IMG/VR virus record: IMGVR_UViG_3300012931_000015
Span: 32,001 to 96,000 of that record
Strand: one strand, 5' to 3'
Origin: a virus
Length of the DNA stretch: 64,000 nt
The notes under the pieces were generated by a model. That model had not been told where the DNA came from, made no database searches, and saw nothing but the letters and a program-made list of their open reading frames with translations. Shown in pieces: positions 2,613 through 62,387 of this stretch (within the stretch, counting starts at the first letter, position 1; each line of letters opens with the position of its first letter). Position numbers and translations under genes: made by a program.

Positions 2613-3029
2613 ATGAATATAGAAAAAGTTATGCCTTATTTTAGTTTTTTACAAACTGAATTATGGAAAAATATTCAAGGGTTGTTTTTTTTATCTATTA
2701 CTATTGCTTTTATTGTGTGTATAGTAGTTCAAGCAATAAAAAAAGCAGATGACACAATTTTTTTAAAATCTGAATTATCAAAAAATCCTTTATTTGTCAT
2801 AAACGGATTTTTAAATTTTTTAATTACTTTTATAATTATTTTAATTTTTGATGGGTTATCAAAATGGTATCTGACTGGACTTTATATATTACTAATATTT
2901 TTATTTAGCTTTGCTTTATCAATTTTGTGCTATGATTATTTTTTAAAGTATATATTTAAAATTTTAGATATAATAGATTTGTGGTTAGAAAATAAAAAAA
3001 ATAAACTAAAGGAAAATAAAAAAGAGTAA
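2613..3029 (+). CDS. Putative holin
   Basis: Three hydrophobic segments and a highly basic C-terminus. Confidence 0.55.
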   Translation: MNIEKVMPYFSFLQTELWKNIQGLFFLSITIAFIVCIVVQAIKKADDTIFLKSELSKNPLFVINGFLNFLITFIIILIFDGLSKWYLTGLYILLIFLFSFALSILCYDYFLKYIFKILDIIDLWLENKKNKLKENKKE

Positions 3030-3034
3030 TTTTT

Positions 3035-3399: not shown

Positions 3400-3596
3400 T
3401 GGATAAATGTTGTCAATGTGGAAATGTATTAAATACCGGAGATGATATTTCAGGAATTTGTAGTTCTTGTAAAGAAAAAAATAAATTTTCATTTGGTTGG
3501 ATATGCCCTATTTGTGGTAGAGGGAATTCACCTTTTACAAGTACCTGCTCATGTAAACCTATGAACTATACTATAACTTGTAATAATAAAGGATAA
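3399..3596 (+). CDS. Small Zn-finger protein
   Basis: CCQC..CSSC..WICPICG..CSC; AGGAG RBS. Confidence 0.6.
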
Positions 3597-3600
3597 AAAA

Positions 3601-4308
3601 ATGATAAAATTACTAAATACTATTAAGGATTTTTTTACAAACTACAAAACTTTAATTAAAACAATTATTACACTTTTTATAATATTATGTTTAATTACTT
3701 TTGGTTTTATTGTTGTAAAAAAAATAAATGATTTCTTTTCTAATAAATATAGCGAAGAGAAAAAAACACTTATTGCTGACAATAAAAAACTATTAGAAGA
3801 AAAAGAAAAAAACTTAATTGAGCTAAATAAACAATTAAGTGAAAGAGATAAACAAATAAAAAAACTTAAAGATCAAATACCGTCTAGTTATACATCAAAT
3901 GAATTAGATAAAATAAACTGTGATATAAAAAATAAAATTATATTAGATCAACAGGGTAATATAGTTGAGCTAAATAAAATTATAGATAGTGATACAAAAC
4001 TACTAGATCAAGCAAAAAAAGATATAGAAGAATTAAATAAAACATTGAAAGAAACAAATGAAAAATATGCTAAATCTCCTGACCCTAAAAAAAATAGTTT
4101 AAAACTTTTTGTGCTTGGTGGTTTATCAGTTGTAAACAATAGCAATGGAAATTTAGAATTTAAACCGGACTTATATTGTGGACTAGCTTATGCTCGAAAT
4201 TTATTTTTAAGTAAATTAATAGATGTTGACATAGAATTTGGCGGTGCAGTAAAAGTGTATAAAGATTTAGGATTTGGGGTTGAATTAGCTTCCGTTTTCG
4301 GATTTTAA
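3601..4308 (+). CDS. Spanin-like protein (N-terminal TM, coiled coil, C-terminal amphipathic beta-strands ending in Phe)
   Basis: TM at about aa 19-40, long heptad region, terminal GFGVELASVFGF; last gene of the lysis cluster. Confidence 0.5.
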   Translation: MIKLLNTIKDFFTNYKTLIKTIITLFIILCLITFGFIVVKKINDFFSNKYSEEKKTLIADNKKLLEEKEKNLIELNKQLSERDKQIKKLKDQIPSSYTSNELDKINCDIKNKIILDQQGNIVELNKIIDSDTKLLDQAKKDIEELNKTLKETNEKYAKSPDPKKNSLKLFVLGGLSVVNNSNGNLEFKPDLYCGLAYARNLFLSKLIDVDIEFGGAVKVYKDLGFGVELASVFGF

Positions 4309-52184: not shown

Positions 52185-53238
52185 TCAAATTTTCCATTCA
52201 ACATTAAAATAGCCACTTTCTTTTTCAAACTTATTTCCGGTTATAATATTTATTCCTTTGAATTTTGTTGTACATAAATAAGCTGTACCTTTCAATCCTT
52301 TGCGTTTAGCACCATGATTTAAAATATCTTGTTCTATAATTTTCATTTTTCTATTTGTTTTGAATCTTGAAGCTGGCATACCTATAAAACTAAATTGTCT
52401 ATAACTTTGATCTTTTTGATACTCTTCTGTAAGTTTTTCATTTATTAAATCAGATATTTGATCGAGTGTTGAATTTATCGGAGCTTTCACATAATAAAAA
52501 CTGCCACAACCTTCTCTATCAACATTTCTTATTTGAAATTTTTTTATTTCTTTACTTAGTTTATTAATATAAGTTATATTTTTTAGAATAGATTTGCAAT
52601 AAGGGCATTCGGTTATTGTTTCTAAACAACCATGACAATCTTCTGATTTTTTAAATGAAGTATAAGTTTTTATATTATAGTTATTAATATTTTGTTTCAT
52701 ATCTTCACAAGGCACAAAAGTTTCTTCATCCCAATGACATTTGTTATCCATATAAGCACTCCTTTTAATACCAGTATTGCAAATAACCATATTTTATTTT
52801 ATAGTTTTCTTTTCCATAGTATTTATCTAAAAATTGAATAATGTTATAATGTTGTTTTTGAAAATTTTGAATAATTTCTGAAATATTTGTATCAGTTAAA
52901 TCAATTATTAAATCATTGTTTCCTATAAAGTTGGTATAATGAGGATATTCTATATTTAAGTAATAATAAATAAAATCAGGAGCATTTCCCATCTGTAATT
53001 TAATTATTTCTTCTTCGAGTTCATCTGTTATTTCATCCCAAAAATCATTTATTATATTTTGTGATTTAGAGATGGTTTTTACTTCTCCTCCACAAAGTTT
53101 ACAATATTTTCCCTCATAATTATATTTATTGTAAGTTTCATGACATTTTATATATTCAGTTTCAGTTATTTCAACATTTCTATATTGTGGTTCACATTTA
53201 AAATAAATGCCTAAATATTGATGTAAATCTAAACTCAT
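52185..53238 (-). CDS. Two hypothetical genes (52185-52790, 52765-53238)
   Basis: ORFs behind TTGACA-17-TATACT (53305-53277). Confidence 0.55.
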
Positions 53239-53341
53239 AATTTTATCCTTTAGAAATAAAGATTTAATTTTTATTGAGTATAAAATATTTTAGCAGATTT
53301 GTCAACAATTATTTTTAATTTTTTTTAAAGAAAATAAAAAT

Positions 53342-53425
53342 TGGGAGCCGTGTGAGTCGAACACACCGAGCCCGAAAGCACCAGATTTACAGTCTGACCT
53401 GCCTCCACTTACAGAATAGACTCCC
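53342..53425 (-). tRNA. tRNA-Tyr(GTA)
   Basis: Cloverleaf with CAGA-CTGTAAA-TCTG arm, long variable arm and GTTCGACTC; no CCA. Confidence 0.9.
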
Positions 53426-53436
53426 ATTTAAAAAAA

Positions 53437-53510
53437 TAGCTTCGGAGGGATTTGAACCCATCACTACACAGAGCTTAAATCTGTTGACTCTTCCGTTGGT
53501 TTACGAAGCC
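53437..53510 (-). tRNA. tRNA-Leu(TAA), short variable arm
   Basis: ACAGA-TTTAAGC-TCTGT; acceptor GGCTTCG/CGAAGCT; A73. Confidence 0.8.
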
Positions 53511-53518
53511 ATACTATA

Positions 53519-54451
53519 TTAATTAATTTTCAGTTTTCTTCCTTTTATAAATCCTAATGATATATAAGAATCAAAAGCATTTTTATTTATTGATAATGAT
53601 TTTTTTTCTTTATCGGAATATACCCAAATTTTTCCATAATTATTATTATTTTCTTTTTGTTGATGCCTTATCTTTTTAAATGTATCGTATACTTTTTTAT
53701 GGGGTCTGTGGATTTTTAAAAGTATTTTTTCGTTATCTTTTTTTATCTTACTATATTTTTTCATAATTTTAATTATCTTATGTATGTTTTCCAATTTTAG
53801 TATTTTATCATTTAATGCTTTTACTTCCGCTATTCTTTTAATATCATATTTTTCGATAAAATTTCTAGCTACTGAAATATATTTTTTTGTATCATTAAAT
53901 AATTGTTTCCAAGAAATTCTTAATATGTGCCATCCATTATTTTGTAAATACTCATCTTTTCTTTTATCTCTAATAATATGTTGAATATACCTGTGATGTT
54001 GAGCACCATCAATTTCTATAGCTAACATTTTATTTACCCATGCAAAATCTATATGATATTTGTGAACATGATAATTATATTCATAATTTTTATCTTCAAA
54101 TTCATTCTCTATCACTTTCATAAAAAATTGTTCAGGATATGAAGGTATTCCTTTCCAATGATTAAAACCAATATTTGAAGCTCGTCCTTCCTTATGAGCT
54201 TTTTTCATGCCATCTGAAACTTTTTTCTTAAAATATTTTGTAAAACATTCAGTATTTCCGCATGTTTTAGTATAATTTATATTATTTTTATTTATACAAT
54301 CTTTACCACAGATAGGACATTTGGGTATTATAAAATTATCATATTTAATTTTATATTCTAATAATTTAATATTATGTTTACTATATAGATGTCTACTAAG
54401 TGATTGCAAGTTATTATATTGTTTTATATTACAAATTTTACATACGCCCAT
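53519..54451 (-). mobile_element. Vsr/DUF559-like homing endonuclease with Zn fingers, inside the tRNA array
   Basis: CKIC..H..H and CPICG; SYPE...IDFA...IEIDG.QH...D..KD.YL...GW.ILRI.W. Confidence 0.8.
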
Positions 54452-54529
54452 ACATAATTTTTCTCCTTATAGTGAATGATAATAAATTAATTTTTATGAA
54501 TCATAGCTTCCTCACTATATAATATCATT

Positions 54530-54615
54530 CGGAAAACAGAGAACTCGAATCTCATACACTTATCATGTACAATCAGTTTAGCAAACTGTTTCTGCTCCTA
54601 GCAGATTTGTTTTCC
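54530..54615 (-). tRNA. tRNA-Ser(GCT)
   Basis: CAGT-TTGCTAA-ACTG; long variable arm; G73. Confidence 0.85.
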
Positions 54616-54617
54616 AT

Positions 54618-54689
54618 AGCCTTCAGTTTGGACTTGAACCAACACAAAATCCTTACAAGGGATTTATACTACCATTATATTATGAAGGC
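54618..54689 (-). tRNA. tRNA-Thr(TGT)
   Basis: AATCC-CTTGTAA-GGATT; acceptor GCCTTCA/TGAAGGC. Confidence 0.85.
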
Positions 54690-54696
54690 GTAAAAT

Positions 54697-54783
54697 CGGA
54701 AGATAGGTCTACTCGAAAGCCATGCTTTTTTCAGCACCTACCGATTTCAAGTCGGCGGTAGTACCCTGACTACTTTATCTTCC
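54697..54783 (-). tRNA. tRNA-Ser(TGA)
   Basis: GCCGA-CTTGAAA-TCGGT; long variable arm; G73. Confidence 0.85.
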
Positions 54784-54789
54784 CAAATG

Positions 54790-54863
54790 GGTGTCTATGG
54801 AGAATTGAACTCCAACTATCAGAGCCACAATCTGACGTGCGAACCTTTAACACTTTAGACACC
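54790..54863 (-). tRNA. tRNA-His(GTG)
   Basis: TCAGA-TTGTGGC-TCTGA; G-1:C73 pair. Confidence 0.9.
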
Positions 54864-54895
54864 ACACATAAAGTCAAAATGATATTTGACTATAT

Positions 54896-54967
54896 CGGAT
54901 TTACGGAGAATTGAACTCACGACTTCAGGTTAGACAGACCTGCATACTACCTTTATATTATAAATCC
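54896..54967 (-). tRNA. tRNA-Asp(GTC)
   Basis: CAGGT-CTGTCTA-ACCTG; G73. Confidence 0.85.
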
Positions 54968-54969
54968 AT

Positions 54970-55042
54970 TAGCGGATAGTAGATTTGCACTACTGACCTT
55001 CAGCTTATGAGGCTGTCGAGCTAACTACTGCTCCAATCCGCT
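54970..55042 (-). tRNA. tRNA-Met(CAT)
   Basis: CAGC-CTCATAA-GCTG; fMet-like D arm; T-loop TGCAAAT. Confidence 0.8.
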
Positions 55043-55047
55043 ATAAT

Positions 55048-55119
55048 AGCAATTAACCAGCAACGATCTGGTAATTTCAGCTTGGAAGGCTGATGTGTTG
55101 CCTATTACACTATACTTGC
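55048..55119 (-). tRNA. tRNA-Gly(TCC)
   Basis: TCAGC-CTTCCAA-GCTGA; U73; T-loop ATCGTTG. Confidence 0.8.
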
Positions 55120-55143
55120 AAAAAATGTTTTCAAAGATCGTAT

Positions 55144-55214
55144 CAGTGGTTGAAGGTACTGCCCCTTCGCTTTGCGTGCCAAAAACGCAGGTACTACTTT
55201 TATACTAAACCACT
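55144..55214 (-). tRNA. tRNA-Gln(TTG)
   Basis: TGCGT-TTTTGGC-ACGCA; A1-U72; G73; T-loop GGCAGTA. Confidence 0.8.
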
Positions 55215-55216
55215 CT

Positions 55217-55287
55217 TGGAGCTACTCAGAATTGAACTGAGATACTGAGCTTGAAAAGCTCATGTCCTGCCATTAGACGATAGCTCC
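55217..55287 (-). tRNA. tRNA-Glu(TTC)
   Basis: TGAGC-TTTTCAA-GCTCA; acceptor GGAGCTA/TAGCTCC. Confidence 0.9.
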
Positions 55288-55294
55288 ATAAAAT

Positions 55295-55337
55295 AAAAAA
55301 GGCTTCAACACAACTTATAATAAATTATGTTAAAGCC
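55295..55337 (-). terminator. Attenuator terminator immediately upstream of the tRNA array
   Basis: GGCTTTAACATAATTT-ATTAT-AAGTTGTGTTGAAGCC-TTTTTT (16 bp including three G-U pairs). Confidence 0.85.
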
Positions 55338-55378
55338 CATATTGAGTTAATATCTCAATAAACTTATTTTAACATAAT
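55324..55378 (-). promoter_or_regulatory. Antiterminator hairpin, mutually exclusive with the terminator
   Basis: ATTATGTTAAA (55378-55368, over the leader stop) pairs with TTTAACATAAT (55334-55324, terminator 5' arm); inner TATTGAG/CTCAATA hairpin. Confidence 0.75.
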
Positions 55379-55506
55379 ATATACCTTTCATAATCTGTTG
55401 ATTGTAATCCAGATAATAAAAAAGCAGACCCCTGATATTGGAGTTCACTATTACTTGGATTATTTTTATAATTGTGTTTTGGCATAGCCTTTAATAAATT
55501 TTTCAT
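55369..55506 (-). CDS. Leader peptide (45 aa) of the tRNA-array attenuator
   Basis: MKNLLKAMPKHNYKNNPSNSELQYQGSAFLLSGLQSTDYERYILC*; below the ORF-track cutoff. Confidence 0.7.
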   Translation of the reverse strand: MKNLLKAMPKHNYKNNPSNSELQYQGSAFLLSGLQSTDYERYILC

Positions 55507-55525
55507 AATCTTTTATTGTGTTTGT

Positions 55526-55554
55526 ATTATACACCTTTTATTTAATATTGTCAA
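55526..55554 (-). promoter_or_regulatory. Consensus sigma70 promoter for the leader and tRNA array
   Basis: TTGACA-17-TATAAT, with TACTAATA and AGTAAA-N5-TGTAAA just upstream. Confidence 0.85.
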
Positions 55555-55786
55555 TAGTATTAGTAAGTATTTTTACAATAAGTTTACTTTGTAATTTTAT
55601 AATTTTGTTACATCATTAAAGCTTACTGCTATCAAAATACCTGATATTAATCCTCCTATACCACCTATAAGCCAATATACCACAGGATGAATATTTGAAC
55701 CTGAAAGATTGAGAGCCAAGCCTATTAGACCACTTGTAATAATTATAAGAATTGCAAATATTAAGTATTTCATTGTTTAACTCCTT

Positions 55787-55984
55787 TTATTTTTTGTTTC
55801 TTTTTCTATAAGCCATAATACCACATAATATTTGAATTAAAAGAAATGTTATTTGTACTATAAAAAATATTAAATGATAATTGCTTGAAATAATGTTTAT
55901 TTTTTCTTCACTTATAAAACTTAACATGCCAAAACCAGCATTAAAAAACATAGCTATTAAACATATTATAAAATATTTTTTCAT
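55787..55984 (-). CDS. Small two-TM membrane protein
   Basis: Two hydrophobic segments and a basic tail. Confidence 0.55.
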   Translation of the reverse strand: MKKYFIICLIAMFFNAGFGMLSFISEEKINIISSNYHLIFFIVQITFLLIQILCGIMAYRKRNKK

Positions 55985-56232
55985 TTTTCATCCTTTAAAT
56001 TTATTAAAATATATTCTTTATCAGTTTTTATAATAATATCATACTTAAAACGATAGTTATCAAAATTTTTTTCAATTTCTTTTTCATTATCATCATCAAT
56101 TGTACTAAAAGGTCTAACTATTTTTATATTTTTTATTTTGCTATTTCCTTGCAATACATTTACACGAACAACATAAGATGAACAAGAAATAAACATAAAT
56201 AAAATTATAATTAAAACTAGTATTTTTTTCAT
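55981..56232 (-). CDS. Small lipoprotein
   Basis: True start probably MKKILVLIIILFMFIS-C after an AAGGAG RBS. Confidence 0.55.
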   Translation of the reverse strand: MKKILVLIIILFMFISCSSYVVRVNVLQGNSKIKNIKIVRPFSTIDDDNEKEIEKNFDNYRFKYDIIIKTDKEYILINLKDEK

Positions 56233-61727: not shown

Positions 61728-62387
61728 TCAACTATTATTTACATTTATTTTAATAAAATTTACAATATTTTCATAATTAACATCTTCAACTTTATCAACT
61801 TCTAATAACCAACCCCCCGAATTCTTAGCTGATTGAATACCATTAAAGTTATCTTCAAGTATAAGACATTCATCCGGTTTTAAATTAAGTTGTTTCATAG
61901 CTAATTGATAACAGTAAGGATCAGGTTTTGGTTTGCTTTTACCTTCTGTCATAAAATCTTCATTACCCAGAATAAAAGTCATATAATCATAAATACCAAT
62001 CACTTTTAATATTTTTTCTATTGTATCTCGAATGCTGTTACTCACACACGCTAAAATAAAGCCATTAGCAATCAAATTACAACACATAGATATTTTAATA
62101 GGGTCTAGTTGAAAATCATCAATCGCAAGCATTGTGTATTGTTGTTTCAATTCCCATATTTTTTCTTTATCGGATTCTTTAAGTAATCCTCTATTTTCAA
62201 GTATTTGTAGTTTTGTATTTGTAGTTTTTCCATCATAGTATTTCAGGTGGGTATCATAAGGTATTTCATAATCTATTACAGTTTTAAGAGCTTGGTTTAA
62301 ACATCTATAATGTTGATCTTTTAAATCAACAAGTGTACCATCGAGATCGAAAAATATTGCTTTAATTTTATAATTAGAAGATAAAAT
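61728..62387 (-). CDS. HAD-family sugar phosphatase (longer than the ORF-track call; apparent ATT start)
   Basis: Frame continues upstream to IKAIFFDLDGTLVD; SNS, KP.P and EDN..G motifs present. Confidence 0.75.
   Translation of the reverse strand: MLSSNYKIKAIFFDLDGTLVDLKDQHYRCLNQALKTVIDYEIPYDTHLKYYDGKTTNTKLQILENRGLLKESDKEKIWELKQQYTMLAIDDFQLDPIKISMCCNLIANGFILACVSNSIRDTIEKILKVIGIYDYMTFILGNEDFMTEGKSKPKPDPYCYQLAMKQLNLKPDECLILEDNFNGIQSAKNSGGWLLEVDKVEDVNYENIVNFIKINVNNS

Follow-up and report, generated by a model that had tools for sequence, protein, structure and literature searches.

A candidate ribosome-read attenuator ahead of an eleven-tRNA array in an uncultured wetland phage

The tRNA array and the genes around it

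The window analyzed here, a stretch of 64,000 nucleotides, covers bases 32001-96000 of a 163.6-kb virus record in IMG/VR (IMGVR_UViG_3300012931_000015) that was assembled from wetland metagenomes and represents an uncultured phage. Unless a genome or contig position is indicated, all coordinates refer to the window. The record is very AT-rich, with a G+C content of 26%, and the phage encodes tail sheath and baseplate genes as well as an intein-bearing ribonucleotide reductase and TnpB. No close relative was identified among the INPHARED phages in searches with the DNA, the tail sheath and the helicase, and the same was true for IMG/VR when it was searched with the exact terminator described below, with patterns for tRNA-Gln and tRNA-Glu, with the nucleotidyltransferase and with the sheath.

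An array of 11 tRNA genes is located on the minus strand at positions 53341-55288, as identified with ARAGORN, Rfam and cloverleaf folding. The genes are arranged in the order Glu, Gln, Gly, Met, Asp, His, Ser-UGA, Thr, Ser-GCU, an endonuclease ORF, Leu-UAA and Tyr. Seven of the tRNAs were detected by ARAGORN with default settings, to which Rfam adds Asp, while relaxed ARAGORN settings add Ser-GCU (54530-54615), Ser-UGA (54698-54781) and Asp (54895-54968), all on the minus strand. The tRNA-Gln gene (55141-55213, minus strand) was missed by both ARAGORN and the Rfam tRNA model; it has a full cloverleaf with the anticodon UUG and an odd T-loop. Several of the tRNAs in the array are non-canonical. 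A solo tRNA-Gln gene elsewhere in the genome has no leader.

The ORF that splits the array (53519-54451, minus strand) encodes an endonuclease of 310 residues with DUF559/MTES_1575 domains (PF18741/PF04480) and has a strong Shine-Dalgarno sequence of its own. Relatives with 55-60% sequence identity are also located inside the tRNA arrays of two unrelated phages (L011 and L012), and a homing endonuclease with tRNA regions as its target would be expected at such places. The unrelated phages G001 and G002, which contain endonuclease relatives and large arrays, have no comparable leader before their first tRNA. In G002, a G+C-rich hairpin followed by a T7 tract is placed a few nucleotides before tRNA-Met, after a 36-codon ORF (L012:1583-1622, plus strand), and terminators immediately ahead of tRNA genes recur in other phage arrays.

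Further upstream of the array, at a distance of 6-8 kb, the minus strand contains genes for an RNA ligase (PF09414; 62761-63999) and a HAD-family hydrolase (61728-62150), which may constitute an RNA-repair kit like the sets used by phages against tRNA cleavage. No polynucleotide kinase was identified beside the ligase by Pfam, and the relatives of the ligase on metagenome contigs have no tRNA arrays nearby. On the other side of the array, right after the last tRNA gene (Tyr), a near-consensus promoter that matches at 11 of 12 positions (53277-53305, minus strand) drives the next gene. Together with the promoter upstream of the first tRNA, it brackets the array between strong early-type promoters.

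Promoter, leader ORF and terminator upstream of the array

The promoter upstream of the array is of the sigma-70 type and is located at 55526-55554 on the minus strand, with TTGACA at 55554-55549 and TATAAT at 55531-55526. It had been described as perfect in an earlier note on this DNA, and it indeed matches the consensus at 12 of 12 positions, with a spacer of 17 nt. It is the top-scoring site in a 6-kb scan, and the 163.6-kb genome contains five sites with a 12/12 match, two of which, the leader promoter included, have the 17-nt spacer. Based on the spacing only, transcription is predicted to start near position 55519.

Directly upstream of this promoter, at 55558-55565 on the minus strand, there is a copy of the motif TACTAATA, a phage-specific promoter-like element. 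The genome contains 37 copies of the motif (for example at genome positions 11517, 13795 and 49948, the latter on the minus strand, and in the region of 141424), of which 32 are intergenic. In eight genes that lack a Shine-Dalgarno sequence, the motif sits 4-8 nt ahead of the ATG, and TACTAATA probably acts as a promoter specific to the phage, from which leaderless mRNAs are produced. The copy at 55565-55558 is placed 51 nt from the ATG of the leader ORF.

The leader ORF itself, with no other long ORF beside it in the leader, is present as claimed in the earlier note, with 45 codons at positions 55369-55506 of the minus strand, a stop codon at 55371-55369 and a predicted 5′ UTR of approximately 13 nt. 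When the dinucleotides of the leader are shuffled, the probability of an open frame of this length is 0.02. The leader peptide has no homolog among 5.8 billion proteins, and no locus homologous to the leader region was found in the collections searched (INPHARED, IMG/VR and protein sets). The downstream gene, which encodes 157 residues, has a single relative with 54% identity, located on short contigs without further synteny or tRNAs.

Most genes of the phage carry a strong Shine-Dalgarno sequence, and its other promoters precede AGGAG-type sites. Such a sequence is absent from the leader ORF, for which the pairing energy is +0.1 kcal/mol compared to a gene median of -5.5 kcal/mol. With a predicted 5′ UTR of about 13 nt the ORF is not leaderless either, yet the phage has genes without a Shine-Dalgarno sequence that are probably leaderless, and translation of the leader is plausible. 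The missing Shine-Dalgarno sequence is the main weakness of reading the locus as an attenuator, for which the leader would have to be translated. Within the ORF, at codons 21-29, a small hairpin followed by a U-run (55428-55444, minus strand) appeared terminator-like in the 6-kb scan and may serve as a transcription pause site. The earlier note had also pointed to a long hairpin in the ORF formed by TAATCCA and TGGATTA. These segments do pair in the fold in which the antiterminator was constrained, but in the unconstrained minimum free energy (MFE) structure the 3′ copy pairs elsewhere.

The leader ends with an intrinsic terminator at 55290-55338 on the minus strand (-20.4 kcal/mol), which consists of a hairpin (55338-55300) and a U-tract (55299-55290). 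While both of these parts had been recognized previously, the stem contains 18 pairs (four G-C, four G.U and the rest A-U) rather than the 16 that were claimed, and it is followed by T6-A-T4. A genome-wide scan for U-tailed hairpins with perfect stems resulted in 14 calls, the longest of which is the terminator before tRNA-Glu. The reported gap of 7 nt between the U-tract and the first of the 11 tRNAs is correct when measured from the T6 run, with tRNA-Glu at 55287/55288. There is no space for a separate promoter in this gap, and expression of the array therefore depends on read-through of the terminator.

Situated 7-12 nt from an RNase P cleavage site, the hairpin might mainly serve the processing or stability of the tRNA precursor, for example by protecting its 5′ leader or by admitting an RNase, and not act as a terminator in vivo; a comparable U-tailed hairpin precedes tRNA-Met by a few nucleotides in G002, which is an unrelated phage. 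However, 18 pairs followed by a T6-A-T4 tract correspond to a canonical intrinsic terminator, and a role in processing would call for neither the matching of codons nor a complement that is located upstream and covers a stop codon, both of which are described below. We consider this explanation very improbable.

Another explanation is that the promoter and the terminator delimit a self-contained unit, either a gene for a protein of 45 residues or a small RNA of about 220 nt, while the array is fed by constant leakage through the terminator, and that the complement to the terminator and the codon content of the leader are coincidental. Small RNAs and small genes are typically recognized by a strong promoter with a strong terminator behind it, the gene callers of the source listed the leader ORF as a gene, and the ORF has no Shine-Dalgarno sequence. 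On the other hand, no promoter would be left for the 11 tRNAs, which are located downstream of a terminator hairpin longer than any other found in the genome, and we regard this explanation as unlikely.

Predicted folds and codon content of the leader

A segment of 11 nt at 55368-55378 on the minus strand, which extends across the stop codon of the leader ORF, is perfectly complementary to 55334-55324, a part of the 5′ arm of the terminator. The earlier note had likewise described an 11-bp complement that overlaps the stop codon. The two strands could form an antiterminator helix, and inside this helix there is a 7-bp hairpin at 55340-55360 (minus strand) that the MFE, centroid and constrained folds have in common. 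In random genomic windows, a complement of at least 11 nt to the terminator arm has a probability of about 0.002 per 100 nt, and compared to the 11 nt at the leader terminator, the upstream complement is at most 6 nt at the 13 other hairpin calls, which represent 12 distinct sites. The 5′ strand of the antiterminator also contains a mini-ORF of three codons (Met-Leu-Lys-stop; 55364-55375, minus strand) with GAAAGG 8 nt before its start. This mini-ORF could provide a second route by which ribosomes mask the strand, or it could be due to chance.

In the predicted folds of the nascent RNA, the antiterminator remains the MFE structure as long as fewer than 16 nt of the terminator's 18-nt 3′ arm have emerged. 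At equilibrium, the terminator beats the antiterminator by 13 kcal/mol locally, and read-through therefore rests on a kinetic argument, according to which the two folds would compete while the RNA is being made. The effect of a ribosome was modeled by blocking 30 nt around a ribosome with its A site at a given codon. When the mask was placed at the stop codon or at codon 40, the antiterminator was lost in the predicted folds, whereas it was kept with masks at codons 31-36. The masks thus had the consequences that the earlier note had predicted, and this geometry suits a model in which the leader is read by a ribosome.

No hairpin of the 1:2 pause or anti-antiterminator type was found, as the folds contain no stable upstream partner for 55378-55368. 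Such a pause hairpin is typical of the trp leader, and it is not universal among attenuators. Since the antiterminator strand has no upstream partner, untranslated RNA is predicted to read through. In this respect the leader of the wetland phage, with neither a Shine-Dalgarno sequence nor 1:2 pairing, would differ from the attenuators of enterobacterial amino-acid operons, in that its default without translation is read-through and not super-attenuation.

The leader folds better than shuffled sequences (z = -4.0). Both this result and the advantage of the terminator at equilibrium, by 13 kcal/mol, would also fit a self-contained small RNA or gene, but the complement then falls exactly on the stop codon by coincidence. 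A different possibility is that the antiterminator is real and is switched by something other than a ribosome, such as an RNA-binding protein of the phage or the host, an antitermination factor, a tRNA bound to the leader, or temperature. The terminator/antiterminator pair is well supported, in contrast to translation, and since the untranslated nascent RNA defaults to the antiterminator, a factor that opens this structure could be the regulator. However, the leader did not match any Rfam family, T-box (RF00230) included, in a cmscan search of 52800-56200 with E-values up to 1, which only identified the tRNAs and one chance hit. Moreover, a switch of this kind leaves unexplained why there is a long open frame, why its end is placed on the antiterminator strand, and why it has the codon content that it has. 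We judge it to be quite unlikely.

Turning to the codon content, codons 30-40 (55387-55419, minus strand) are located directly before the complement and encode Leu, Leu, Ser, Gly, Leu, Gln, Ser, Thr, Asp, Tyr and Glu. That all 11 codons are read by tRNAs from the array, as had been stated, holds only if Ser-UGA reads UCU, that is, under extended wobble, in which U34 also reads codons ending with U; under strict wobble, the cognate run has a length of eight codons. Simulated ORFs gave a probability of 0.003 for the run of 11 under extended wobble and of 0.015 for the run of eight under strict wobble, which provides the chance estimate that the earlier note had called for. Among the 194 small ORFs in the genome, the leader alone contains the 11-codon run under extended wobble, while the eight-codon run under strict wobble is present in the leader and one other ORF. 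The codon check also confirmed that none of the 11 tRNAs lacks a cognate codon in the leader (P = 0.036), which is the sole ORF of the 194 with such full coverage.

These numbers should be seen in relation to the codon usage of the phage. Codons that are read by the array represent from 40% (strict wobble) to 46% (extended wobble) of all codons, and with cognate codons for ten amino acids at such frequencies, chance runs are not negligible. In addition, codons 1-29 of the leader contain many Lys, Asn and Pro codons for which the array has no tRNA, and the codon match is thus poorer than in the phages G010 and G015 that are discussed below. The chance statistics were chosen after the pattern had been noticed and some of the tests overlap, but taken together the chance features argue against coincidence. 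If the segment were a self-contained unit, four chance oddities would have to be accepted, with probabilities of 0.002 for the complement, 0.02 for the open frame, 0.036 for the complete set of cognate codons and 0.003-0.015 for the run.

The elements are present in the order of a trp/his-like attenuator, as originally proposed, and they are statistically unusual with respect to the complement, the open frame and the codon content. We find it likely that some conditional switch between a terminator and an antiterminator controls the tRNA array. That the switch is a ribosome-read transcription attenuator, which exerts negative feedback on the supply of the array tRNAs, is a more specific proposal, to which we assign an even chance.

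Codon-matched leaders in two other phages and the proposed model

Because neither the leader nor its neighborhood has homologs in the collections searched, we examined phages that share the RNA ligase. These were chosen by alignment of the ligase, a gene unrelated to the leader, after which their tRNAs were mapped. In two of these phages, G010 (L108) and G015 (L109), the tRNA arrays consist of blocks that are separated by spacers of 190-270 nt. The elements in every spacer resemble those of the wetland phage locus: a promoter-like motif, a short ORF (20-33 codons) enriched in codons for the block that follows, and a U-tailed hairpin placed 7-13 nt before the next tRNA. The 3′ part of the ORF contains a complement to the terminator's 5′ arm, which was measured as 5-8 nt in G010 and was judged by eye from the folded sequences in G015. 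The leader ORFs in G010 are located on the plus strand at L108:2058-2147, 2948-3031 and 3562-3639 (in the region L108:2058-3700), and their three counterparts in G015 are located on the reverse strand within L109 1744-3560.

The blocks differ in the amino acids that they serve, which are Lys, Arg, Gly, Glu, Met, Ile, Val and Ala for block A, Leu, Ser and Tyr for block B, and Pro, Asp, Asn, Thr, Phe, Gln, His and Trp for block C. All six leaders in G010 and G015 contain runs of 9-15 residues taken solely from the amino acids of their own block, compared to at most five for the other blocks. The sequences of the leaders differ between G010 and G015, while the match in amino acids is kept. In seven other AT-rich phages that share the ligase (G004, G008, G011, G012, G021, G007 and G019), the same automated search covered approximately 55 tRNA blocks, in which the runs were at most five and no codon-matched leaders were identified, showing that the search method does not yield matched leaders everywhere. 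That the closest AT-rich phages with the ligase lack these leaders also counts against an attenuator in the wetland phage.

The codon-matched leader design is real in G010 and G015 as judged from their sequences, and the wetland phage locus shares this architecture. In sequence, the leaders of G010 and G015 are not homologous to that of the wetland phage, and they also differ in other respects. While the start codons in G010 and G015 are placed a few nucleotides after a TAnnTTTG-type motif, the leader in the wetland phage is placed behind a sigma-70 consensus with a 5′ UTR of about 13 nt. The runs in G010 and G015 use only three to eight amino acids, whereas the leader in the wetland phage is longer and serves one large block. 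It matches less cleanly because a single leader serves ten amino acids.

The loci in G010 and G015 also bear on the alternatives considered above. They show the same layout with unmistakable block-specific leaders, which argues against a self-contained unit with a leaky terminator in the wetland phage. Furthermore, the match in amino acids is preserved although the sequences of these leaders are variable, which suggests that they are decoded rather than bound by a factor, and thereby speaks against a switch operated by a protein, a tRNA or temperature.

Leader-peptide attenuation is textbook knowledge for amino-acid operons and for pheST. Enterobacterial examples include the leaders of thr (Thr, Ile) and ilvGMEDA (Leu, Val, Ile), as well as trpL, hisL, pheL and leuL. 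The wetland phage locus shares with the attenuators of amino-acid operons a promoter, a short ORF with regulatory codons, a terminator just before the genes, and an alternative pairing that a ribosome at the stop codon blocks or, in the phage, is predicted to block, and it shares with the thr and ilvGMEDA type that more than one kind of codon would be sensed. However, the attenuators of amino-acid operons regulate biosynthetic enzymes, whereas the leader in the wetland phage precedes tRNAs. The former also have leaders of 14-32 codons in which one to three codons are repeated, compared to a leader of 45 codons that covers eleven tRNAs in the phage.

In the pheM leader of pheST, attenuation acts on an aminoacyl-tRNA synthetase. 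Similar to the proposal for the wetland phage, this is leader-peptide attenuation of the decoding machinery and not of amino-acid synthesis, but pheM senses a single amino acid and controls a host protein gene. The product at the wetland phage locus is instead the tRNAs that read the sensing codons, and the feedback would therefore be direct. T-box riboswitches likewise sense the status of tRNAs and choose between a terminator and an antiterminator in a 5′ leader. They bind the uncharged tRNA directly and do not need an ORF, whereas the leader in the wetland phage has no match to the T-box.

In the literature searched, of which the coverage is incomplete, we found no published attenuation of tRNA genes and no published attenuation in phages. 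Attenuation itself is known, and the new part, for which we found no paper, is the application of leader-peptide attenuation to phage tRNA genes. To our knowledge, almost nothing is known about the regulation of these genes.

According to the model that we propose, transcription would be initiated at the consensus promoter, with the TACTAATA element as a possible second start. If the RNA is left alone, synthesis of the terminator's 5′ arm would at once be followed by its pairing with the stretch around the stop codon, and the polymerase would tend to continue through tRNA-Glu and the genes behind it. A fast ribosome would reach the stop codon of the leader and cover this stretch, which would allow the 18-bp terminator to form, and the transcript would end 7 nt short of tRNA-Glu. 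If the ribosome is instead slow on codons 30 to approximately 37, which would be read by the Leu, Ser, Gly, Gln, Thr, Asp, Tyr and Glu tRNAs of the array, the antiterminator would remain free and more tRNA would be produced. The net effect would be a negative feedback on tRNA supply, and the shortage could be caused by codon demand, starvation or cleavage of tRNAs.

In a more general form, unrelated phages would gate blocks of tRNA genes with test ORFs written in the codons of those same tRNAs, such that the output of a block scales with the slowness of decoding. This would constitute a general sensor of tRNA supply, possibly also an inducible response to defenses that cleave tRNAs, of which the wetland phage locus would be an AT-rich version of the sigma-70 type. 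We hold this generalization more tentatively, at slightly below an even chance. The loci in G010 and G015 are cleaner examples for testing than that of the wetland phage.

The purpose of phage tRNA genes has been debated for decades, and they have been proposed to provide codon compensation, to replace a host pool that has been degraded, or to let the phage escape anticodon nucleases (PMC10264068, PMC11464382, PMC11555353). If the model is correct, phages measure the decoding capacity and adjust their tRNA supply accordingly. Classical attenuation, known from amino-acid genes, would then also apply to tRNA genes, and the leader could offer a simple and portable readout of tRNA depletion. It is also possible, as the earlier note had suggested, that the switch senses an attack by anticodon nucleases, for which the sole hint is the RNA ligase gene located about 7 kb upstream of the array. 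Plain negative feedback on decoding speed accounts for the anatomy of the locus equally well.
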